DNA of 43,096 nt from the sequence record PQ850627.1; one strand, 5' to 3'. Made by a program: the position numbers and the translations under genes. Source of the DNA: Escherichia phage SonjaBuckley_Bas74. The notes below the pieces were generated by a model, which was given only the letters and a program-made list of their open reading frames with translations, was not told the DNA's origin and made no database searches. Positions 1-8,955 of the stretch are shown piece by piece (position 1 is the stretch's first letter; each line of letters opens with the position of its first letter).

Positions 1-549
1 GTGCGCTCTGATGGTCAGACGCATATGCAAGGGGATTCTATGAAGCTGAAACTTAAGCAGCCATCGCCAGAGGTGGTACAAGCTGCACATGAAGAAGCTG
101 TTAGCGCAAACCGTCGCCGTAAACGACCGCGCGGTAAACAGAGCCTTTATCAATCATCCCGTAATTCTGCGGCATTGTGGGACCCGGACTACTGTGACGC
201 GTTAATCGAGTTCTTCGACCGCACGTCGTGGGAGCTTGTGCCAACGTCTAAGGGTGACGAACGCCCACTGATTCAGGATAAGCCGCCGTCACTGGCCCGC
301 TTCGCCTTACACATCGGCGTCACTATCCCTATTATTAAGCTTTGGCTGCGTGAGATTCCCGCATTTGCAGAAGCCTGGGAGACAGCACAGGCGCTGGAAG
401 AGGCATACTTCACTGAAACGGGGGCCGCGGGCATCTCTGCTACGTTTGCCGCCGCGAAACTGGGCCTGAATAAAACAGTTGTCGCCGAAGAAGTACGCGA
501 CGAGCCAATCAGCGAAGTAACAATTAAGGTGGTGTCCGGTGAACGTTAA
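1..549 (+). CDS. terminase small subunit (frame open from window edge; likely start ATG at 40)
   Basis: ATG at 40 preceded by AAGGGGA SD; basic N-terminal stretch RRRKRPRGK and HTH-like segment; immediately upstream of and overlapping the large terminase ORF. Confidence 0.6.
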   Translation: MRSDGQTHMQGDSMKLKLKQPSPEVVQAAHEEAVSANRRRKRPRGKQSLYQSSRNSAALWDPDYCDALIEFFDRTSWELVPTSKGDERPLIQDKPPSLARFALHIGVTIPIIKLWLREIPAFAEAWETAQALEEAYFTETGAAGISATFAAAKLGLNKTVVAEEVRDEPISEVTIKVVSGER

Positions 550-1810
550 TATCACGGCAACGGAGCCGCAAGGCGCGTTTCTCGGTATGCATTGCAAGTT
601 TCCGGCATTCGTAGCTGGCTTCGGTACGGGTAAATCCGAAGTTATGTGCAACTCTGCACTACTCGACAGCATGGAAGGTGGTAGCGATTCTATCATCGCC
701 ATGTATGAGCCGACTTATGACCTGGTGCGCCTCATCCTTGCACCGCGTATGGAAGAAAAGCTCACCGACTGGGGTATCCGGTACAAATACAACAAGTCTG
801 ACAACATAATCTATACGTCTTCCGGACAATTTGGGGATTTTGTTCTGCGTACACTTGATAATCCAGCACGAATCGTTGGCTACGAATCGTTTCGTGCGAA
901 AATCGACGAGTTGGACACCCTTAACATGGAGCACGCCGAGCACGCGTGGAACAAAGTCATCGCCCGTAACCGCCAGTTGCCGCGGACATATAAACCTATT
1001 ACACCGAAACCTGCTAATACCGTTTCCGTGTTCACTACCCCGGAAGGATTCCGTTTCGTACATGACCGCTGGGTAGTCAAAAAGAATCCAGGCTACGAGA
1101 TGATTCAGGCGTCCACCCTGTCTAACCCGTTCCTGCCAGAAGATTATGTGCAGTCGTTACGCGACACATACCCAGGTCAGTTGATTGACGCCTACATCAA
1201 CGGCGAGTTCGTCAACCTGACGGCGGGGACTGTCTATTACGCCTATGACCGCAGGAAAAACAGCAGCCGCGAAACAATAAAACCAGGCGAGACTCTGTAT
1301 ATCGGGCAGGACTTTAACGTAGGCCACATGGCTAGTACAGTTTACGTGCAACGTGGCAAAGTCTGGCATGCAGTCGCCGAGTTGGTGGATATGTTCGATA
1401 CGCCCGATGTGGTGAGAGCCGTAACAGAGCGCTGGAAAAGTAAGGGCCACTATATCGTTATGTACCCCGACGCAAGCGGTAAAAACCGTAAAAGTAACAA
1501 CGCCAGCACATCTGATATTGCCCAGTTACAGCAGGCCGGCTTCGAAGTGCGCGCTAAATCGACAAACCCACAGGTTAAAGACCGCGTAGCGGCGATGAAT
1601 AAGGCGCTTGAATCTGGTATGGTCATGATTAATGAGCAGGCTTGCCCGGTTACCGCGCGATGCCTGGAGCAACAGGCTTACGACAAGAACGGCGAACCGG
1701 ATAAATCGGGTGGTGTGGACCACCAGAATGACGGGACCACATATCCCATCGCGTATGAAATGCCGATTCGCAAACCAGTTATTAACGTCCCGGTGACTTT
1801 CGCACTTTAA
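539..1810 (+). CDS. terminase large subunit
   Basis: GTG start with AAGGTGG SD; Walker A-like GFGTGKS near N-terminus; sits between small terminase and portal. Confidence 0.7.
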   Translation: MNVNITATEPQGAFLGMHCKFPAFVAGFGTGKSEVMCNSALLDSMEGGSDSIIAMYEPTYDLVRLILAPRMEEKLTDWGIRYKYNKSDNIIYTSSGQFGDFVLRTLDNPARIVGYESFRAKIDELDTLNMEHAEHAWNKVIARNRQLPRTYKPITPKPANTVSVFTTPEGFRFVHDRWVVKKNPGYEMIQASTLSNPFLPEDYVQSLRDTYPGQLIDAYINGEFVNLTAGTVYYAYDRRKNSSRETIKPGETLYIGQDFNVGHMASTVYVQRGKVWHAVAELVDMFDTPDVVRAVTERWKSKGHYIVMYPDASGKNRKSNNASTSDIAQLQQAGFEVRAKSTNPQVKDRVAAMNKALESGMVMINEQACPVTARCLEQQAYDKNGEPDKSGGVDHQNDGTTYPIAYEMPIRKPVINVPVTFAL

Positions 1811-1822
1811 GAGGATTATTCA

Positions 1823-3304
1823 ATGTTAACTATGAACGGTCAGAATCAGGGTGTTAAGACAAAACACCGGGAATGGCTGCATCACTTCGATAAATGGCAG
1901 AAGGTGCGCCACGCGCTGGAAGGTGACCTTATCCGCTATCTGCGCAACGTCGGGAAGAACGAGCCTGACCCTACCTACGCGGCACAGCGCCAGGAAGAAT
2001 ATGAGAATGGTGCTATCTGCTACAACTTCACTAAACGTACCCTTGCGGGGATGGTGGGGTCGGTGATGCGCAAAGACCCTGAACAGATTATCCCGCCTGA
2101 ACTGGAGTACCTGTTACGTAATGCAGACGGTTCAGGTGTCGGTCTGTGGCAGCACGCGCAGGACACGCTGATGGAGATTGACTCGGTAGGCCGTGGCGGG
2201 TTGCTGGTGGACGCGCCGGAGACAGCTGCGGCAACGGCAGCCGAACAGAACGCGGGGTTACTAAACCCGGTCATTGCATTCTACACTGCTGAGAACATCA
2301 TCAACTGGCGACTGACCCGCATCGGCTCAGTGAACCGTGTGACGATGGTCGTGTTACGTGAGGTGTGGGAATACTCAGAACCAAGTGCAGAGTTCGAAAC
2401 AAAGTTCGGTGAACAATACCGCGTTCTCGATTTGATTGACGGGCGCTACCGCCAGCGAATCTATCGCTTCGATGCCGAAGGTGGCGCACAGGATGAAGTA
2501 ATCGAAATCTTCCCGGAACTCGGCGAACAGTTGCGCGGTAAAATCCCGTTCACGTTCATTGGCGCAAGCAACAACGACGCCACTATAGACGATGCGCCTT
2601 TACTGCCGTTAGCTGAGCTAAATATAGGACACTTCAGAAATTCGGCCGATGTGGAAGAGGCCAGCTTTATAGTAGGTCAACCGACACTGTTCATTGCCCC
2701 CGGCGAGAACATGAGCATGGAGCAGTGGAAAGAAGCCAACCCACACGGCATACGCATGGGGTCGCGTTCAGGCCACAACATCGGCTCCGGCGGAAATGCG
2801 TTTCTGGTTCAGGCGGCGGAAACTAACCTCGCCAAACAGAATATGCTGGATAAAGAGAATCAGGCCATCCAGATTGGCGCGCAGCTTATCACCCCGACGC
2901 AGCAAATCACCGCGGAATCGGCCCGCCTGCAACGCGGCGCCGACACGTCAGTCATGGCAACAATAGCACGTAATGTAAGCATGGCGTATACCGATGCGTT
3001 GCGCTGGGTTGCGGGTATGCTTGGGCTTAGTGAAGATACTGAGATTGAGTTCAAGCTGAATATGGAATTCTTCCTGCAACCTATGACAGCTCAGGACCGC
3101 GCTCAGTGGATGGCGGATATTAACGCTGGCCTGCTACCCGCCACCGCTTACTATGCTGCGTTGCGCAAGGCAGGTGTGACTGACTGGACAGATGAGGACA
3201 TTCAGAACGCTATTGAAGACGCACCTCTGCCGTTGGGTTCTGTTGCTCAGGTAGCGGGAGAGATTCCGCAGTCGGCGCAGCAACAGGACACCACTCAGCA
3301 GTAA
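1823..3304 (+). CDS. portal protein
   Basis: 493 aa ORF with AAGAGGA SD directly after terminase; followed by intrinsic terminator; size and position typical of portal. Confidence 0.65.
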   Translation: MLTMNGQNQGVKTKHREWLHHFDKWQKVRHALEGDLIRYLRNVGKNEPDPTYAAQRQEEYENGAICYNFTKRTLAGMVGSVMRKDPEQIIPPELEYLLRNADGSGVGLWQHAQDTLMEIDSVGRGGLLVDAPETAAATAAEQNAGLLNPVIAFYTAENIINWRLTRIGSVNRVTMVVLREVWEYSEPSAEFETKFGEQYRVLDLIDGRYRQRIYRFDAEGGAQDEVIEIFPELGEQLRGKIPFTFIGASNNDATIDDAPLLPLAELNIGHFRNSADVEEASFIVGQPTLFIAPGENMSMEQWKEANPHGIRMGSRSGHNIGSGGNAFLVQAAETNLAKQNMLDKENQAIQIGAQLITPTQQITAESARLQRGADTSVMATIARNVSMAYTDALRWVAGMLGLSEDTEIEFKLNMEFFLQPMTAQDRAQWMADINAGLLPATAYYAALRKAGVTDWTDEDIQNAIEDAPLPLGSVAQVAGEIPQSAQQQDTTQQ

Positions 3305-3314
3305 GTTCACCTAT

Positions 3315-3336
3315 AGCCCCGAAAGGGGCTTTCTTA
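3315..3336 (+). terminator. intrinsic terminator after portal gene
   Basis: AGCCCC-GAAA-GGGGCT hairpin followed by TTCTT. Confidence 0.6.
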
Positions 3337-3373
3337 TAGTATGCTATTAACTTTAGCGCCACAGGGTTGATCT

Positions 3374-4417
3374 ATGAGCTTACTTACATCCCTAATCAGC
3401 CATCAGATATGGCTGCAACGCACCGCATCCGGTGAGGTGAAAGACCTCACGCCGTTCATTCAGGAGATAAGGGATGAAATCAAACGGCAGGTGCTGTTAT
3501 TCGGTGACGACGGTCGCAGCACTGCGCGACTGAATAAACTGTTACGCGACCTGGAAGAAGCACTAACCGGTATTACGGGTGACTGGCAAACAAAGCTAAC
3601 AGACGACCTTAAGGAACTGGCGGCGTACGAGGCTGAGTGGAACGTAAAGACACTGACCGCCAACGTAGACGCGGAATTTGTTACGCCTACCGCTGAGCAG
3701 GTATGGGCCGCTGCCGAGTTTCAACCATTATCATTGAGCGACAAGCCCGTTGATTTCACCAAGCTGATGTCTGGATGGGGCGAAACGGAAGTAGCACGTC
3801 TTGTAACTGGAGTTAAGATGGGCTTTGTGCAAGGTCAAACCACACGGCAGATTGTTAAGAATGTTGTTGGCGCTGGTGGACTAGCCGACATCTCAGAACG
3901 TAACGCGACTACGGTAATCCGCACCGCGCTGTCCCACGTATCCAACGAGGCCCGTAACGAGACGTACCGCCAGAACGACGACATCATCGAGAAGTACGAG
4001 TGGGTGTCAACGCTTGACAGCCGCACCAGTACGATTTGCAGGGTCAGAGACGGGATGACGTGGGAAATTGGTAAGGGGCCGATGCCCCCAGCCCATCCGA
4101 ACTGCCGGTCGTGCACGGCTCCGGTAATCAGTTCCGAGTTCGACTTCCTCGATAAAGGCGCAAAACGCGCGGCTAAAGGCGCGGAAGGTGGCACTCAGGT
4201 AAGCGCAGACACCACTTACTACGAGTTCCTTAAACAACAACCGGCGTGGTTTCAGGACCAGGCGCTCGGCCCGGTGCGAGGTAAGATTTTCCGTAACAGC
4301 GGTATATCGCCGGAAGAGTTTCGCGTAATATCTGTAGATGGTTTCGGGAATCCGCTCACGCTTAAGCAGATGGCGGAACTCGATAAACGTGTTGCTGATT
4401 ATCTGAAAGGGGAATAA
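3374..4417 (+). CDS. head morphogenesis protein (SPP1 gp7 / Mu F-like)
   Basis: 347 aa; C-terminal HPNCRSC motif characteristic of this family; position after portal. Confidence 0.65.
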   Translation: MSLLTSLISHQIWLQRTASGEVKDLTPFIQEIRDEIKRQVLLFGDDGRSTARLNKLLRDLEEALTGITGDWQTKLTDDLKELAAYEAEWNVKTLTANVDAEFVTPTAEQVWAAAEFQPLSLSDKPVDFTKLMSGWGETEVARLVTGVKMGFVQGQTTRQIVKNVVGAGGLADISERNATTVIRTALSHVSNEARNETYRQNDDIIEKYEWVSTLDSRTSTICRVRDGMTWEIGKGPMPPAHPNCRSCTAPVISSEFDFLDKGAKRAAKGAEGGTQVSADTTYYEFLKQQPAWFQDQALGPVRGKIFRNSGISPEEFRVISVDGFGNPLTLKQMAELDKRVADYLKGE

Positions 4418-4878
4418 TGATGGGCTTTTTCAAAGTAACTGACGTACCGTCTCGTCGCGTAGTCCAGTACGCCCGCGTGTCTGGCTCTGGCGAGAACGTG
4501 GTATTTATTGAGGACGAAAGTGTACTCGGTACACCGGTAGATGATATGCCGTTTGCAGATAAAACCGGTATTGCGTTGCCCGCCGCCGGTATGCTTTATG
4601 AAATTCCGTATCTGGCGGACGCTGGCGACGTGTATTTCTCTGCGCAACCGCAGGACGCTGAACTGGCGGGCGGCAGCGCAACCATCACTGTCGAGGTTAA
4701 GGCAGGCAAAGCGCCGTATTCTCTGACCTGGTACAAAGACGGTAAGGAAGTGGTGAATGCGCCTGAGGAGGCTCTGTCTCTGACGGTTAATGCGGTCGGC
4801 GAATACTTCGTTAAAGTTACTGATGCCGATGGAGTAGAGGCGGTAAGCAAAGCGGCGAAGGTTACTAAGCCAGAATGA
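4417..4878 (+). CDS. Ig-like domain protein (putative head decoration/accessory)
   Basis: C-terminal segment TITVEV...APYSLTWYKDGKEV...GEYFVKVTD resembles an Ig-like beta-sandwich; start overlaps preceding stop (TAATG); paralogous to 7879-8223. Confidence 0.45.
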   Translation: MMGFFKVTDVPSRRVVQYARVSGSGENVVFIEDESVLGTPVDDMPFADKTGIALPAAGMLYEIPYLADAGDVYFSAQPQDAELAGGSATITVEVKAGKAPYSLTWYKDGKEVVNAPEEALSLTVNAVGEYFVKVTDADGVEAVSKAAKVTKPE

Positions 4879-4881
4879 TAA

Positions 4882-4908
4882 AAGGCCCCATTATGGGGCC
4901 TTAGTTTT
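4882..4908. terminator. bidirectional intrinsic terminator
   Basis: GGCCCCA-TTA-TGGGGCC hairpin with A-run upstream and T-run downstream, between convergent genes. Confidence 0.65.
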
Positions 4909-5111
4909 CAACGGAATCTTGTGTTTAAATCCTGCTCATGGACAACCCTCAGAACAGTGTCATAATCCCCGTATCTTCCAGGTTCAAATATATCTAATGC
5001 CTTGTAAGCAGACATTGCGTCAGGGAAAACCTGCAGAACCTTTTTAACCCGGCACAAGTCACCGTCGAACTCTTCATCGAACTCTTGAACTACTTCGCAA
5101 ATTGCATACAT
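4908..5111 (-). CDS. hypothetical protein (antisense moron, 67 aa)
   Basis: ATG with strong SD AGGAGGTG 5 nt upstream; own promoter TTGCAC-N17-TACTAT at 5139-5167; terminator hairpin at its 3' end. Confidence 0.55.
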   Translation of the reverse strand: MYAICEVVQEFDEEFDGDLCRVKKVLQVFPDAMSAYKALDIFEPGRYGDYDTVLRVVHEQDLNTRFR

Positions 5112-5138
5112 TTTTCACCTCCTGTTTAAGTTAACTGA

Positions 5139-5167
5139 ATAGTACCCTATTATATTGGGGTGTGCAA
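5139..5167 (-). promoter_or_regulatory. sigma70-type promoter TTGCAC-N17-TACTAT for moron 4908-5111
   Basis: Minus-strand reading TTGCACACCCCAATATAATAGGGTACTAT; 31-bp core identical to copy at 13662-13692. Confidence 0.55.
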
Positions 5168-5218
5168 ACTATTTATTTACGTATTCCAGTTATTCCTCGA
5201 ATTGTAAATGTTGGAATA

Positions 5219-5234
5219 AACTATTCGAATAGTT
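5219..5234. promoter_or_regulatory. perfect 16-bp palindrome AACTATTCGAATAGTT (operator candidate) abutting TTGACT
   Basis: Exact inverted repeat; half-site ACTATTC recurs in several promoters of this genome; overlaps a TTGACT -35-like hexamer at 5233-5238. Confidence 0.45.
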
Positions 5235-5441
5235 GACTTTTCACTAAAAATATGATAAGCTCCACCTGAGCTTGTGAAGTATGAACAAGCGACCGCGGCG
5301 CGGGCAGGTAACGGAGCGGGACGTAAGTCCTGAGTGCAGTTACGCTGACGCGTTCGGAAGGGCCATACTCTATTGCTTGTGTAAAAAGTAACTGGTTTAC
5401 TGAGATTACGCCGTTTCTATGTTTAAATGATAAGGACTAGC

Positions 5442-5468
5442 GCCCCGCTTTATGGCGGGGCTTTACTT
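5442..5468 (+). terminator. terminator-like hairpin upstream of spanin genes
   Basis: GCCCCGC-TTTATG-GCGGGGC followed by TTTACTT. Confidence 0.5.
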
Positions 5469-5485
5469 ATCGAGAAAGGGGAAAC

Positions 5486-5872
5486 ATGAATCTTAAAGCA
5501 ACTGTCGTAGCAGGAGCATGTTTCATCATCCTGGTTTACGCACACGGCATCTACCAGTATCGCAGCGGATGGAACGAAGGCCGGGCTAATCTCGTTTCGC
5601 AGCAACAGCAGAAAGCACAGGCTGAGTTAGCGAAGAAAACACAACGGCAGCAGCAGGATGAATCGAAGGCCGCCGCCGCTGACAACGAAGGCAAGACGAA
5701 ATCAGAGGTGATTACCCGTGAAGTCGTTAAGTACATTAAAACGCCTGGTCGCAGCGTGTGCACTTTTGACCCTGAGCGCGTGCAGCTCAAGTCCCGCGCC
5801 GTCGCCAACGCCAATTCCATCCCCGGATACGACGATGATGCAGCCGCCGTGCAAACTGGCGCAGCCAAGTAG
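5486..5872 (+). CDS. i-spanin (Rz-like)
   Basis: N-terminal TMD ATVVAGACFIILVYAHGIY followed by Q/K/E-rich coiled-coil region; contains an overlapping +1 frame lipoprotein ORF. Confidence 0.65.
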   Translation: MNLKATVVAGACFIILVYAHGIYQYRSGWNEGRANLVSQQQQKAQAELAKKTQRQQQDESKAAAADNEGKTKSEVITREVVKYIKTPGRSVCTFDPERVQLKSRAVANANSIPGYDDDAAAVQTGAAK

Positions 5873-5981
5873 CGACGCTGATGAGGATTTGGCCGTCGAC
5901 GTTCAGAATGCTGAATGCGTACGGCAACTGAGACTGAAAGTGTTCATGTTGCAGGATTACGTGAGGAATATTCTGGAATAG
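5718..5981 (+). CDS. o-spanin (Rz1-like outer membrane lipoprotein)
   Basis: +1 frame relative to the i-spanin, overlapping its 3' half; signal peptide with lipobox LSAC; proline-rich mature part SSSPAPSPTPIPSP. Confidence 0.65.
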   Translation: MKSLSTLKRLVAACALLTLSACSSSPAPSPTPIPSPDTTMMQPPCKLAQPSSDADEDLAVDVQNAECVRQLRLKVFMLQDYVRNILE

Positions 5982-6036
5982 TTGCCTTGCATGTTGGAAT
6001 AATTTATTCTTGACATGTAAATCCGGGTGGCCCGGA
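5965..6036 (+). promoter_or_regulatory. phased GGAATA repeats, TTGACA hexamer and TCCGGG-N3-CCCGGA palindrome upstream of scaffold gene (candidate late promoter / activator site)
   Basis: GGAATA at 5965, 5975 and 5996; 12-mer ATGTTGGAATAA shared with 5208-5219; TTGACA at 6010-6015 without a recognisable -10. Confidence 0.35.
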
Positions 6037-6063
6037 TTCCAACGTCCAGGGGACATACTGACT

Positions 6064-6765
6064 ATGAATCGTTTTTTACGTTATCCGTTCCAGGAAGAAG
6101 CTGGAGCAGAAGATAAAGCTGGTGGCGGTGACGCTCCTAAAATGTTCACCGCTGAAGAAGTTCAGGCGCTGATTGAGAAAGAAGTTGCCGGGCTTAAGGC
6201 TAATCAGGAAGCATTGTTGGCGGAGAAGAAAGAAGCCGCTCGCAAAGCAAAAGAGGCCGAAGAAGAACGGCAGCGCGCGCACCAGGAGGCGTTAAAAGCC
6301 GCTGGTAAGATGGATGAGTTCGAAAAGACGATTCGTAGCCAGTACGACCCTGTGTTAGCCGAGAAAGACGGTCGCATCTCCAGAATGGCAGAGCGTATCC
6401 TCGGCAGCGAACGTAAAGCGGTGCTAGGCTCTTTCGCGGGTGACTTTATTACCCCAGAAGCAGTGGACATTCTTGCGCCGTTCGTTAAGACTGAGTTCGA
6501 AGGCGATGATGTGGTTACTAAGTTTGTTGGTGCAGACGGTAACGTAATCACGACTGACCCGGAACAGTTCCGCAAATACCTGCGCGAACACAAGGCGTTT
6601 TCGCATTTGATCAAAGCAAATGCAGCTTCCGGCGGCGGGGCTTCCGGTAGCAAAGGCGGCGGGGCCGCACCAGCGTTTAAAGACATGAGTGAAGCAGAGC
6701 GTTTAGCCCTGTATAAATCGAACCCTGCCGAATTTGAACGGCAACTTAAAGCCCTGAGGAAATAA
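6064..6765 (+). CDS. scaffold protein (putative)
   Basis: ATG at 6064 with AGGGGA SD (ORF track extends to 6010 without SD); K/E/A-rich coiled-coil-like sequence; directly upstream of major capsid gene. Confidence 0.55.
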   Translation: MNRFLRYPFQEEAGAEDKAGGGDAPKMFTAEEVQALIEKEVAGLKANQEALLAEKKEAARKAKEAEEERQRAHQEALKAAGKMDEFEKTIRSQYDPVLAEKDGRISRMAERILGSERKAVLGSFAGDFITPEAVDILAPFVKTEFEGDDVVTKFVGADGNVITTDPEQFRKYLREHKAFSHLIKANAASGGGASGSKGGGAAPAFKDMSEAERLALYKSNPAEFERQLKALRK

Positions 6766-6767
6766 TA

Positions 6768-7817
6768 ATGGCAATTACCACTATCGGCGATATCGTAACT
6801 GGCAACATCCCGGTCCTGGCGTCTTATATGACCGAGGACCCGGTAGAAAAAACCGCGTTCTTCCAGTCTGGTATTCTGACCCCGACCCCGTACGCTGCCG
6901 AGATTGCCCGCGGCCCGTCCAACGTCGCTAATATTCCTTTCTGGAAAGCGATTGATACCTCTATCGAGCCGAACTACTCGAACGACGTATACCAGGACAT
7001 CGCCACCCCGCGTAACGTGCAGACCGGCGAGATGATGGCGCGCGTTGCGTACCTGAACGAAGGTTTCGGTCAGGCGGATTTGACCGTTGAACTGACCAGC
7101 CAGAACCCGCTGCAATCCGTAGCGTCACGTCTGGATAACTTCTGGCAGCGTCAGGCACAACGCCGTCTGATTGCTACCGCGCTCGGGCTGTACAATGACA
7201 ACGTAGCCGCTACCGACGCATACCACGAGCAGAATGACATGGTAATCGACGTGTCTGCTACTCTGGGCTTCGATGCGGGCGCGTTCATCGACGCTACCCA
7301 GACTATGGGCGATGCTCTGATGGGCAACGGCGGTGAAGTGCTGGGGGCTATCGCGATGCATAGCTTCGTTTATGCGCAGGCACGTAAGCAGCAGCTTATC
7401 GACTTCATCCGTGACGCGGACAACAACACCATGTTCGCCACCTACCAGGGCTACCGCGTGATTGTTGACGACAGCATGACCGTAGTCGGCACTGACCAGA
7501 CCCGTAAGTTCATCTCTATTATCTTCGGTAACGGCGCTATCGGTTACGGTGAAGGTTCTCCGTCCAACCCGCTGGAATACGAGCGCGAAGCGTCTCGCGG
7601 TAATGGTGGTGGCGTTGAAACCCTGTGGACCCGTAAGACCTGGTTGCTGCACCCACTGGGCTACAGCTTCACCAGCGCAGTAATCACCGGCAACGGCACC
7701 GAGACTACCTCGCGCTCTGCTTCCTGGCAGGACCTGGCGAACGCCTCCAACTGGAACCGTGTTGTTGAACGTAAGCACGTACCGATCGCCTTCCTGGTAA
7801 CTGGTGTCAGGTCTTAA
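6768..7817 (+). CDS. major capsid protein
   Basis: 349 aa ORF with GAGGAA SD immediately after scaffold gene and followed by strong intrinsic terminator; size and position typical. Confidence 0.7.
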   Translation: MAITTIGDIVTGNIPVLASYMTEDPVEKTAFFQSGILTPTPYAAEIARGPSNVANIPFWKAIDTSIEPNYSNDVYQDIATPRNVQTGEMMARVAYLNEGFGQADLTVELTSQNPLQSVASRLDNFWQRQAQRRLIATALGLYNDNVAATDAYHEQNDMVIDVSATLGFDAGAFIDATQTMGDALMGNGGEVLGAIAMHSFVYAQARKQQLIDFIRDADNNTMFATYQGYRVIVDDSMTVVGTDQTRKFISIIFGNGAIGYGEGSPSNPLEYEREASRGNGGGVETLWTRKTWLLHPLGYSFTSAVITGNGTETTSRSASWQDLANASNWNRVVERKHVPIAFLVTGVRS

Positions 7818-7832
7818 GGTTAAGCTATAATC

Positions 7833-7858
7833 GAGAGGGACTTCGGTCCCTCTTTTCA
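7833..7858 (+). terminator. intrinsic terminator after major capsid gene
   Basis: GAGGGAC-TTCG-GTCCCTC followed by TTTTCATTT. Confidence 0.65.
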
Positions 7859-7878
7859 TTTACTAAGAGGATTCCTAT

Positions 7879-8223
7879 ATGGCAGACGTATTGAAGCGGC
7901 GCATCACCGGCGTCTCCGCTGACGCCCCAGGTGCTAAGATTGACATGGCGACTATTTCTCCTGCGTCTTTTTCTACCCCACTTAACGCTACTACCGAGGT
8001 TACCGCTCCCGCCGCATTGACTCTCACTGTTGCGGTAACTGGTGGTCTGGCCCCTTATTCCTACCAGTGGTATAAGAATAACAACGCCATCGCAGGCGCT
8101 ACCGAGGCTACGTACACCAAGGCCACTACTGTTGCTACTACCGACTCCGGTACGTATAAAGTGGTTGTTCACGATGCGTATGGTAATATTATCTCCAGCA
8201 GCACTGTAGCAACTGTGTCTTAA
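7879..8223 (+). CDS. Ig-like domain protein (putative capsid decoration)
   Basis: AAGAGGA SD; LTLTVAVTGGLAPYSYQWYKNNNAI...GTYKVVVHDAYG matches Ig-like pattern shared with 4417-4878. Confidence 0.5.
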   Translation: MADVLKRRITGVSADAPGAKIDMATISPASFSTPLNATTEVTAPAALTLTVAVTGGLAPYSYQWYKNNNAIAGATEATYTKATTVATTDSGTYKVVVHDAYGNIISSSTVATVS

Positions 8224-8259
8224 TACAGCGGCCCTTCGGGGCCGTAATAAGGAAAGGTC

Positions 8260-8439
8260 ATGGCAGATAATTATGTAATCCGCGAAAAGTACACCCACGT
8301 TGATATTTTAGACGGTCAGGTGATGCCTGTTCGCGGTGTGGTAGAAGCGGATGAACTGGTTGCGACTCAACCGGACAACGAAGAAGCGCACAACAACGGC
8401 GGTGGTACTAAGCGTCGCCGCCGTAAGTCAGAGGAATAA
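8260..8439 (+). CDS. hypothetical protein (59 aa, missed by 60-aa ORF cutoff)
   Basis: ATG at 8260 with AAGGAAAGG SD; uninterrupted frame to TAA at 8437-8439; C-terminal basic tail KRRRRK. Confidence 0.45.
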   Translation: MADNYVIREKYTHVDILDGQVMPVRGVVEADELVATQPDNEEAHNNGGGTKRRRRKSEE

Positions 8440-8442
8440 TTT

Positions 8443-8955
8443 ATGCCGCTAATCGTGGAAGATGGGTCAATAGTACCTAATGCTGACAGTTACATTAGTC
8501 TGGCTGACGCCCGCGCGTTAGCGGCTAATTATGGTCTGGAGCTACCTGCAGACGATACCGCCGCAGAGGTGGCCCTGCGCAACGGTGCTACTTATGTCGG
8601 GCTTGCAGAGCCGCGGATGTGCGGTCGTCGGGTGTCCGCCGAACAGTCTCTGGCGTATCCCCGTACCGGGGTAACGTTAAACGGATTCCCGGTAGCGGAT
8701 AATGTTATTCCGAAACAGGTGATTCTTGCGCAGGTAGTCGCCGCCGTTACGTACGGCTCCGGTACTGAGGTGCGGGCTAACTCGGACGGTCGTTCCGTGC
8801 AGACTGAGCGCGTAGAAGGCGCAGTGACCGTGACCTACTTCAACAACGGCAGCAGTGGCGCCACAACCGCGATTACCGCTGCGGACGACGCCTTACGCCC
8901 GTTACTGTGTGGTGGTCTTAACAACGGCTTCTCATTTAATGTGTACCGGGGTTAA
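8443..8955 (+). CDS. head-tail connector / head completion protein (putative)
   Basis: 170 aa ORF in the connector region between capsid and tail genes; call is positional only. Confidence 0.4.
   Translation: MPLIVEDGSIVPNADSYISLADARALAANYGLELPADDTAAEVALRNGATYVGLAEPRMCGRRVSAEQSLAYPRTGVTLNGFPVADNVIPKQVILAQVVAAVTYGSGTEVRANSDGRSVQTERVEGAVTVTYFNNGSSGATTAITAADDALRPLLCGGLNNGFSFNVYRG

Follow-up and report, generated by a model that had tools for sequence, protein, structure and literature searches.

Two head-module genes of Escherichia phage SonjaBuckley_Bas74 carry the same type of Ig-like domain on unrelated N-terminal regions

The head-gene region of Escherichia phage SonjaBuckley_Bas74 contains two small genes with similar immunoglobulin (Ig)-like segments, one upstream and one downstream of the capsid assembly genes, which raises the question of whether they form a duplicated module and what their products do. 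Here we examined both genes within the whole stretch of DNA available (record PQ850627.1; 43,096 bp, hereafter the window), a near-complete siphophage genome of the genus Kagunavirus, subfamily Guernseyvirinae. The two open reading frames (ORFs), ORF1 (4417-4878) and ORF2 (7879-8223), lie where an original prediction, made from the letters of the window without database searches, had placed them. For bases 3300-8500, which include both genes, identity to Escherichia phages VerenaMeyer_Bas76 and vB_Ec_DUEC01 is ∼97% along the entire segment, and 485 phage records match it, mainly from Salmonella Jerseyvirus and E. coli Kagunavirus. From the comparisons described below the two genes are better seen as separate carriers of one promiscuous Ig module than as products of a module duplication, and an accessory decoration role, argued by analogy and in agreement with database annotation, is the most plausible reading of their function.

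The resemblance between the two proteins was confirmed far above chance. The motifs on which it had been proposed are present, as ATITVEVKAGKAPYSLTWYKDGK and then GEYFVKVTDADG in ORF1 and as LTLTVAVTGGLAPYSYQWYKNNN and then GTYKVVVHDAYG in ORF2, and BLASTP aligned the proteins with 22 identities in 55 positions (40%, E=9e-9). Comparison of the two family profiles (22 and 21 homologues, respectively) with hhalign gave a probability of 96.1% over 58 columns (E=3e-9). The similarity is limited to the Ig domain, residues ∼85-142 of ORF1 and ∼44-105 of ORF2. ORF1 is composed of an N-terminal orphan domain (residues 1-75, nucleotides 4417-4641) followed by one Ig-like domain (∼76-153), and ORF2 of an N-terminal peptide of ∼31 residues (nucleotides 7879-7971) followed by one Ig-like domain (∼32-114). 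A hidden Markov model (HMM) of both Ig domains, searched against the six-frame translation of the window, returned these two ORFs only (E=2.7e-39 and 9e-37), with the next-best match at E=0.29, which rules out a third Ig copy in the window, on the tail tube protein for instance. Both proteins match phage families over their full length, ORF1 with PHROG 3945 (residues 2-153 to positions 1-152 of 152, E=1e-85) and ORF2 with PHROG 4069 (residues 1-114 to positions 1-116 of 116, E=5e-50), and the ORF2 sequence already has an identical database entry (P0121). Their direct orthologues in the Jerseyvirus Salmonella phage vB_SenS-Ent1 (Ent1) are gp06 and gp12, with overall identity of ∼64-67%. The start codon of ORF1 overlaps the stop codon of the preceding MuF gene (TAATG), with a Shine-Dalgarno sequence, AAAGGGGAA, upstream. 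A programmed −1 frameshift fusing MuF to ORF1, of the kind by which other phages add Ig domains, was considered and rejected: upstream of its start the ORF1 frame stays open for just 6 codons, there is no X_XXY_YYZ site, and the TAATG junction with its own Shine-Dalgarno sequence and the non-overlapping arrangement of the two genes in Ent1 also contradict it.

The proposal of an Ig-like beta-sandwich held for both proteins, on the basis of AlphaFold2 models, Foldseek searches and sequence homology to the Ig domain of T5 pb10. AlphaFold2, run with family alignments, gave a confident beta-sandwich for ORF1 residues ∼75-153 (predicted local distance difference test score, pLDDT, 75-93); that for ORF2 residues ∼36-113 was reasonable (pLDDT about 60-84), and the score was mostly above 70 in both Ig domains. 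Foldseek searches of the PDB returned I-set/C2 Ig domains among other structures, and matched ORF1 to Axl, Tyro3, Robo, twitchin, N4 9e99 and Moo19 9d7z_J/K, the last with a root-mean-square deviation of 2.5-3.0 over ∼95 columns, and ORF2 to a chitinase FN3 domain, the Ig domains of MALT1 and CD22, and Moo19; the decoration proteins among these matches were those of Shigella phage Moo19 (9d7z) and N4 (9e99, 9lbz). Among viral predicted structures the matches were to Hoc, outer-capsid and decoration proteins and also to tail proteins that bear Ig domains. T4 Hoc itself was absent from the sequence-search results, proteins of the Hoc family being matched at the fold level only. The particular Pfam families that had been put forward (Big_2, I-set and FN3) were not recovered. 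Counting as members only proteins that score at or above the gathering cut-off, Big_2 was below threshold (15.7 against 22.8, ORF1 only), I-set was below threshold for both proteins (15.2 and 19.5 against 23.7) and FN3 gave no match. ORF2 barely reaches Ig_2 (PF13895, 27.3 against 27) and SprB (PF13573, 28.2 against 28), and ORF1 falls under every Pfam cut-off, its best scores being for BiPBP_C (24.5 against 26.8) and Ig_3 (22.8 against 30).

The characterised protein nearest to the two is pb10 of phage T5 (PDB 5LXK, 5LXL, 8ZVI), related through its C-terminal Ig domain, which is likewise small, with an N-terminal anchor and a single C-terminal Ig domain bearing the signature GGxxPYxYxWxK. It consists of an alpha-helical N-terminal capsid-binding domain (a five-helix bundle with the motif FGxxLPx4-5FF) and a solvent-exposed Ig-like C-terminal domain, is present as one copy at each hexamer centre and is dispensable (PMC5292684). 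BLASTP aligned pb10 (T5.151) with ORF2 at 48% identity over 71 amino acids (E=3e-16) and with ORF1 at 32% over 69 amino acids, and hhalign matched its Ig domain to ORF2 with a probability of 98.7% (E=3e-16) and to ORF1 with 91.9%. No alignment to pb10 reached the N-terminal parts of ORF1 or ORF2, and the FGxxLPx4-5FF motif is absent from both sequences. The two-domain plan of pb10 (N-terminal anchor, linker, one C-terminal Ig domain) is found in ORF1, which is also of similar size (∼75 amino acids of N-domain and ∼78 of Ig domain); ORF2 has a shorter anchor, a mere 31-residue peptide standing where pb10 has its N-domain. The gene order portal-MuF-ORF1 puts ORF1 in a place in the head module comparable to that of pb10 in T5 (portal-pb10-protease-major capsid protein), whereas the capsids differ, the one here being SPP1-like and presumed T=7 and that of T5 being T=13.

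Other phage proteins share the Ig domain in different settings. Against PDB sequences the ORF2 profile matched 9ncf_S (E=2e-34), Sf14 gp20 (9c2d_S, E=1e-30), pb10 (8zvi and 5lxk, E=4e-16) and N4 gp17, as well as residues 155-226 of Sf11 gp24, an unmodelled C-terminus in 9occ (E=1.4e-5). Sf14 gp20, described as Hoc-like, has its capsid-binding domain at the N-terminus and is located at hexamer centres (PMC11821841). It and 9NCF chain S have three to four Ig domains in tandem, strongly matched by the ORF2 Ig domain, on larger and unrelated capsid-binding domains; a three-residue insertion in GGxxPYxYxW is common to ORF1, ORF2 and pb10, whereas the gp20 and 9ncf domains are without it. Sf11 gp24 is a tail tube protein (PMC12724387). 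Its Ig domain is of the same type as those of ORF1 and ORF2, but is fused to the tail tube protein, whereas ORF1 and ORF2 are free-standing genes of the head module in a phage whose own tail tube protein has no Ig domain by the HMM search. The tail tube protein of the siphophage lambda, gpV, has an Ig-like C-terminal domain. T4 Hoc, a non-essential protein of the capsid surface, also has Ig-like domains and is the origin of the “Hoc-like” label. In Hoc, the Ig-like domains form a tandem of three at the N-terminus and the capsid-binding domain is C-terminal (PMC5292684; PMC10385173); ORF1 and ORF2 depart from this layout, each having a single Ig domain at the C-terminus with nothing after it. 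SPP1 gp12, which decorates the closest capsid of known structure, is an accessory protein at the hexamer centres of a gp13-type capsid, and the major capsid protein encoded here is homologous to gp13. SPP1 gp12 is a collagen-like trimer without Ig and is set apart from ORF1 and ORF2 by domain type.

The N-terminal regions, which we call anchors in view of the role proposed below, are unrelated to each other in profile comparison. AlphaFold2 modelled the ORF1 N-domain as beta-rich and poorly defined (pLDDT 39-64), and the first ∼30 residues of ORF2 as a short helix with the rest disordered and again poorly defined. The ORF1 N-domain was found in only 13 clusters among 1.8e9 representative proteins, mostly domain-bearing relatives or fragments, P0249 and P0250 being low-complexity artefacts, and it matched nothing in Pfam or among PDB sequences. 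An apparent variant with a non-Ig C-terminus (P0242) was dropped, as it lies on a 593-nucleotide contig and is probably a frameshifted fragment. In every context examined, distant relatives included, the ORF1 N-domain follows the MuF gene of this SPP1-like head module. It is conserved at 73% identity between genera, compared with 62% for its Ig domain, and at 100% compared with 94% between this phage and Bas76. Within Kagunavirus the 31-residue N-terminal peptide of ORF2 is well conserved though predicted to be disordered, which suggests that it may fold on binding. These properties of the anchors fit docking modules.

Is the pair then a duplicated decoration module, as had been proposed? The data do not support this, since the Ig domain alone is shared, the anchors are unrelated and the ORF2 Ig domain is nearer to pb10 and Sf14 gp20 than to ORF1. 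In an all-versus-all BLASTP comparison of Ig domains, ORF2 scored 64 bits with pb10, 50-61 with the domains of Sf14 gp20, 51 with 9ncf and 40 with ORF1, while ORF1 scored 37 bits with pb10 and essentially nothing with gp20 or 9ncf. That ORF1 and ORF2 are recent paralogues, duplicated within this genome lineage, would account for the presence of same-subtype Ig domains with the xPY insertion on two genes of one genome, and for the finding that, among the sequences compared, the best outside match of the ORF1 Ig domain is ORF2, if by a narrow margin (40 bits, with pb10 at 37). Duplication of ORF1-type genes also occurs, a distant relative having two in tandem. We nevertheless consider a recent duplication quite improbable: identity between the proteins is 38-40% and confined to ∼55-60 residues, and the Ent1 orthologues, found in the same positions, are 62% (gp06) and 67% (gp12) identical in the Ig domain, so that the two lines parted before the subfamily arose. 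By tblastn, ORF2 was detected in 457 phage records; the ORF1 N-domain was detected in 488, 487 of which keep at least 80% of it, and no natural ORF1 knockout was seen among them. The scores so far point to the ORF1 and ORF2 families not being sister groups, and the pair is of long standing and conserved across the subfamily. Given that the anchors are unrelated, that the ORF2 Ig domain is nearer to pb10 and gp20, and that the two genes form separate orthologous lineages throughout Jerseyvirus and Kagunavirus, any common origin is old, or the Ig domains were gained independently. The tandem ORF1-type genes mentioned above (Logan SRR14653397 contig) encode 149 and 286 amino acids, with an extra C-terminal region in the longer product, and the same contig has a Tad2-like (anti-Thoeris family) gene just before its head-tail adaptor gene; the intervals concerned on this contig are 283-1592 and 6311-6577.

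Comparison with close relatives revealed variation in the presence of an intact ORF2 and in the Ig halves of both genes. In LotteLoewe_Bas71 (PQ850615; L004 370-400), a viable BASEL isolate, a 164-bp deletion directly after the capsid terminator, equivalent to window 7858-8021, has removed the ribosome-binding site, start codon, anchor and first beta-strands of ORF2, leaving 62 codons that are still annotated “Hoc-like head decoration protein”. From this natural knockout ORF2 appears to be dispensable. A second difference concerns the slot between the capsid terminator and ORF2, where most Kagunavirus and Jerseyvirus, including Ent1 and Bas72, have a gene for a coiled-coil head fiber of 95-99 amino acids (PHROG 4366) that is missing from the window, Bas76 and DUEC01. 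Alignment with Bas72 and Ent1 (window 7855-7880 against L002 5070-5390 and L005 4190-4500) showed that the loss is clean and that ORF2 now sits behind the ribosome-binding site that serves the head fiber in the relatives. The description of ORF2 as lying directly after the capsid gene and its terminator is thus correct for the window, where the hairpin is real, but the arrangement is a derived one, as most relatives have the head fiber in between. Other occupants of the post-capsid slot are eta gene 52 and, in the SRR14653397 contig, an acidic non-Ig protein of 116 amino acids.

Relative to Bas72 and Bas76, the region is 96-100% identical save for the Ig-coding parts, identity falling to 65-79% over 7900-8200 (ORF2) and, with Bas76, to 82-91% over 4600-4900 (ORF1). 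Synonymous divergence (dS) is 0.84-1.03 in the Ig-coding segments and 0-0.14 in the anchor-coding halves, with a ratio of nonsynonymous to synonymous divergence (omega) of 0.03-0.16 in the former. The high dS of the Ig halves, the low dS of the anchor halves and the low omega indicate that recombination near the anchor/Ig boundary has exchanged the Ig cassettes for divergent alleles that stay under purifying selection. Positive selection was ruled out as an explanation of the Ig divergence, given omega of 0.03-0.19 for ORF1 and ORF2 with dS of about 0.8-1.0.

What might such proteins do? We think it probable, with some reserve, that ORF1 and ORF2 are non-essential accessory virion proteins built on the plan of T5 pb10, with an anchor and an exposed Ig domain of the pb10 subtype (GGxxPYxYxWxK). 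Their presence in the virion, their location on the capsid and not the tail, their docking site and their binding of glycans we infer from pb10, Hoc and Sf14 gp20, and the major capsid protein is the presumed docking partner of both. After assembly and expansion of the SPP1-like capsid, each protein would dock on the outer surface of the head by its own anchor, ORF1 through its 75-residue domain and ORF2 through its 31-residue peptide; because the anchors are unrelated, the two would occupy different sites on the capsid. The Ig domains would project into the solvent and provide weak, multivalent adhesion to glycans (O-antigen, capsule, mucus), helping the phage to stay near and find its host without being needed for infection. 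Members of the subfamily use O-antigen or capsule as receptors (PMC11990801), so that glycan adhesion could aid reversible adsorption or retention in mucus. Decoration is supported by the full-length matches to PHROG 3945 and 4069, both named “Hoc-like head decoration”, by the records of Bas76, Bas72 and Ent1, which use the same label, by the Ig fold with its matches to the decoration proteins of Moo19 and N4, by the loss of much of ORF2 in Bas71, and by the mosaic Ig halves on conserved anchors, which fit an exposed, exchangeable domain. Placement on the head is supported by the experimentally established location of the Ig-bearing relatives pb10 and Sf14 gp20 at capsid hexamer centres, by the pb10-like architecture and gene position of ORF1, by the occurrence of its N-domain with this head module only, and by the lack of the Ig domain on the tail tube protein.

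Several observations weigh against a role in head decoration. Both anchors are predicted at low confidence, neither matches a known capsid-binding domain in Pfam, PDB sequences or PHROGs beyond its own family, and the ORF1 N-domain is predicted, at that low confidence, to be beta-rich whereas that of pb10 is alpha-helical. We found no proteomic or structural datum that places either protein in any Guernseyvirinae virion: a virion study of phage eta excised only bands of at least 38 kDa, our literature search found no Kagunavirus proteome paper, and the PDB is without any capsid of the subfamily. Public annotations conflict (neck whiskers, fibritin, tail protein, Hoc-like), and the same Ig subtype on the tail tube protein of Sf11 means that the Ig domain alone does not specify the head. 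To our knowledge there is no direct demonstration of glycan binding by a pb10-type Ig domain. For pb10 itself it was raised as a possibility only (PMC5292684).

The chief alternative is a neck or tail attachment, in which one or both proteins would ornament the whiskers or tail tube, their anchors binding portal, adaptor or tail-tube proteins. The precedent of Sf11 gp24, which has this Ig subtype as its C-terminal domain, speaks for it, as do matches of the Ig domain to PHROG “major tail protein” and “tail protein” families, the position of ORF2 between the capsid and head-tail adaptor genes and of ORF1 after portal and MuF, and the many records that name the orthologues neck whiskers, fibritin or tail protein. 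Those names are transferred, however, with no experiment behind them, and the tail-family matches cover the Ig domain only; both genes lie in the head module, far from the tail tube and tape-measure genes, and pb10 and Sf14 gp20, the characterised small stand-alone proteins among our matches in which an anchor is joined to this Ig subtype, are capsid proteins. We therefore regard a neck or tail location as unlikely. Alternatively the proteins might not be virion components at all and might work within infected cells or on their surface, for instance by helping assembly or as secreted or adhesive factors. Although direct virion evidence is lacking for both and the start of ORF1 is translationally coupled to the MuF morphogenesis gene, such a role seems very improbable indeed: no signal peptide or lipobox was seen on reading the ORF1 and ORF2 sequences (no predictor was run), both genes belong to late structural operons, ORF2 appears dispensable in Bas71, and phage Ig domains of the same subtype are, where studied, parts of virion proteins. 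A more elaborate form of head decoration is possible, if doubtful, in which decoration is layered and modular: ORF1 and ORF2 would occupy two sites through undescribed anchors (a ∼75-amino-acid domain restricted to this head module and a tag of ∼31 residues), with the optional head fiber as a third component, and phages would exchange Ig cassettes by recombination precisely where anchor and Ig domain meet, so that glycan adhesion is retuned independently of the tailspike. If this were true, few known capsid-docking tags would be as short as the 31-residue peptide, which would also be convenient as a handle for display.

The genomic setting of the two genes is given in Table 1. That they flank the capsid assembly genes is correct insofar as scaffold and capsid lie between them, but so do a small reverse-strand gene and an Rz/Rz1 spanin pair. 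The capsid protein matches PHROG 247 (E=5e-120) and the SPP1 coat protein (PDB 4an5 and 6r3a, E∼1e-43). The hairpin after ORF1 ends the terminase-portal-MuF-ORF1 transcription unit and also the reverse-strand gene, and a terminator is annotated at the equivalent site in the records of Ent1 and phage eta. ORF2 is bracketed by two hairpins; the one after the capsid gene is kept in Bas72, Bas76, Bas71 and Ent1 and annotated as a terminator in Ent1, where a putative terminator is also annotated at the site equivalent to the second. Gene order in Ent1 is the same (MuF, gp06, terminator, spanins, scaffold, major capsid protein, terminator, gp12), with the head fiber added before gp12. An Rfam scan of the whole window gave no matches. 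Long antisense ORFs (e.g. 7825-8298 on the minus strand) were not taken as genes, as the substitution pattern fits the plus-strand frames.

Table 1. Positions of ORF1, ORF2 and surrounding features in the window.
Feature	Position	Strand	Basis
Small terminase	1-549	+	
Large terminase	539-1810	+	
Portal	1823-3304	+	
MuF/SPP1-gp7-like head morphogenesis protein	3374-4417	+	
ORF1, 153 aa, orthologue of Ent1 gp06	4417-4878	+	ORF list, PHROG 3945
Bidirectional terminator-like hairpin AAGGCCCCATTATGGGGCCTT	4882-4902	both	terminator scan and sequence
Small reverse-strand gene, 67 aa	4908-5111	−	
Rz/Rz1 spanin pair	5486-5981	+	
Scaffold	ends 6765	+	
Major capsid protein, SPP1 gp13-like	6768-7817	+	PHROG 247, PDB matches
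Terminator-like hairpin and T-run	7833-7854	+	terminator scan
Shine-Dalgarno sequence AAGAGGA, 7 nt ahead of ORF2 start	7865-7871	+	sequence
ORF2, 114 aa, orthologue of Ent1 gp12	7879-8223	+	ORF list, PHROG 4069
GC-rich hairpin with UUCG loop (CGGCCC-TTCG-GGGCCG), without T-run	8229-8244	+	read from sequence
59-aa ORF	8260-8439	+	
Head-tail adaptor and tail genes	from 8443	+	

Some neighbouring features were also noted. The spanin pair, in which the o-spanin gene overlaps the end of the i-spanin gene, is isolated amid head genes; in Bas76 the holins and endolysin are at ∼40.2-41.3 kb, apart from the spanin slot, and in Serratia phage eta and the metagenomic SRR14653397 relative a full lysis cassette (holin, lysin, Rz) occupies that slot. 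A strong terminator-like hairpin lies at 5442-5461, just 5′ of the Rz start. The reverse-strand gene has a strong Shine-Dalgarno sequence and a weak match to PHROG 27256 (E=5e-4), and next to it ∼350 bp (5120-5470) are mainly non-coding with divergent promoter-like sites, a 36-amino-acid ORF being annotated there in Bas76. The 59-amino-acid ORF after ORF2 is conserved (PHROG 4451, function unknown) and has a very basic C-terminal tail, KRRRRKSEE. Escherichia phage fEg-Eco06 (PQ141284) and vB_VIPECOMC04 are among the relatives with mobile insertions in the head region, which include an intein annotated within the MuF-like minor head protein of one relative; in another, the annotations under the match are an HNH endonuclease and a RusA-like resolvase.

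The feature itself is already known, as Ent1 gp06 and gp12, as PHROG 3945 and 4069, and from the BASEL phages annotated “Hoc-like head decoration”. Its discovery value is little, as both genes are labelled Ig-domain or Hoc-like decoration proteins in the annotation of Jerseyvirus and Kagunavirus genomes by the hundred. The GenBank names given to the orthologues are Hoc-like head decoration, hoc protein, capsid decoration protein, neck whiskers protein, fibritin (wac), putative tail protein, putative major tail subunit and glycoprotein, and we found no experiment behind any of them; these inconsistent public names could be replaced. What is still new is the pair of uncharacterised anchors, together with the natural series of gene presence and absence that the BASEL isolates offer. 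The anchors are candidate capsid-docking modules and could serve phage display on an engineerable phage of 43 kb. With Bas71 lacking ORF2, Bas76 and the phage studied here lacking the head fiber, and Bas72 having all three genes, the BASEL series makes the function of these decoration genes easy to test.

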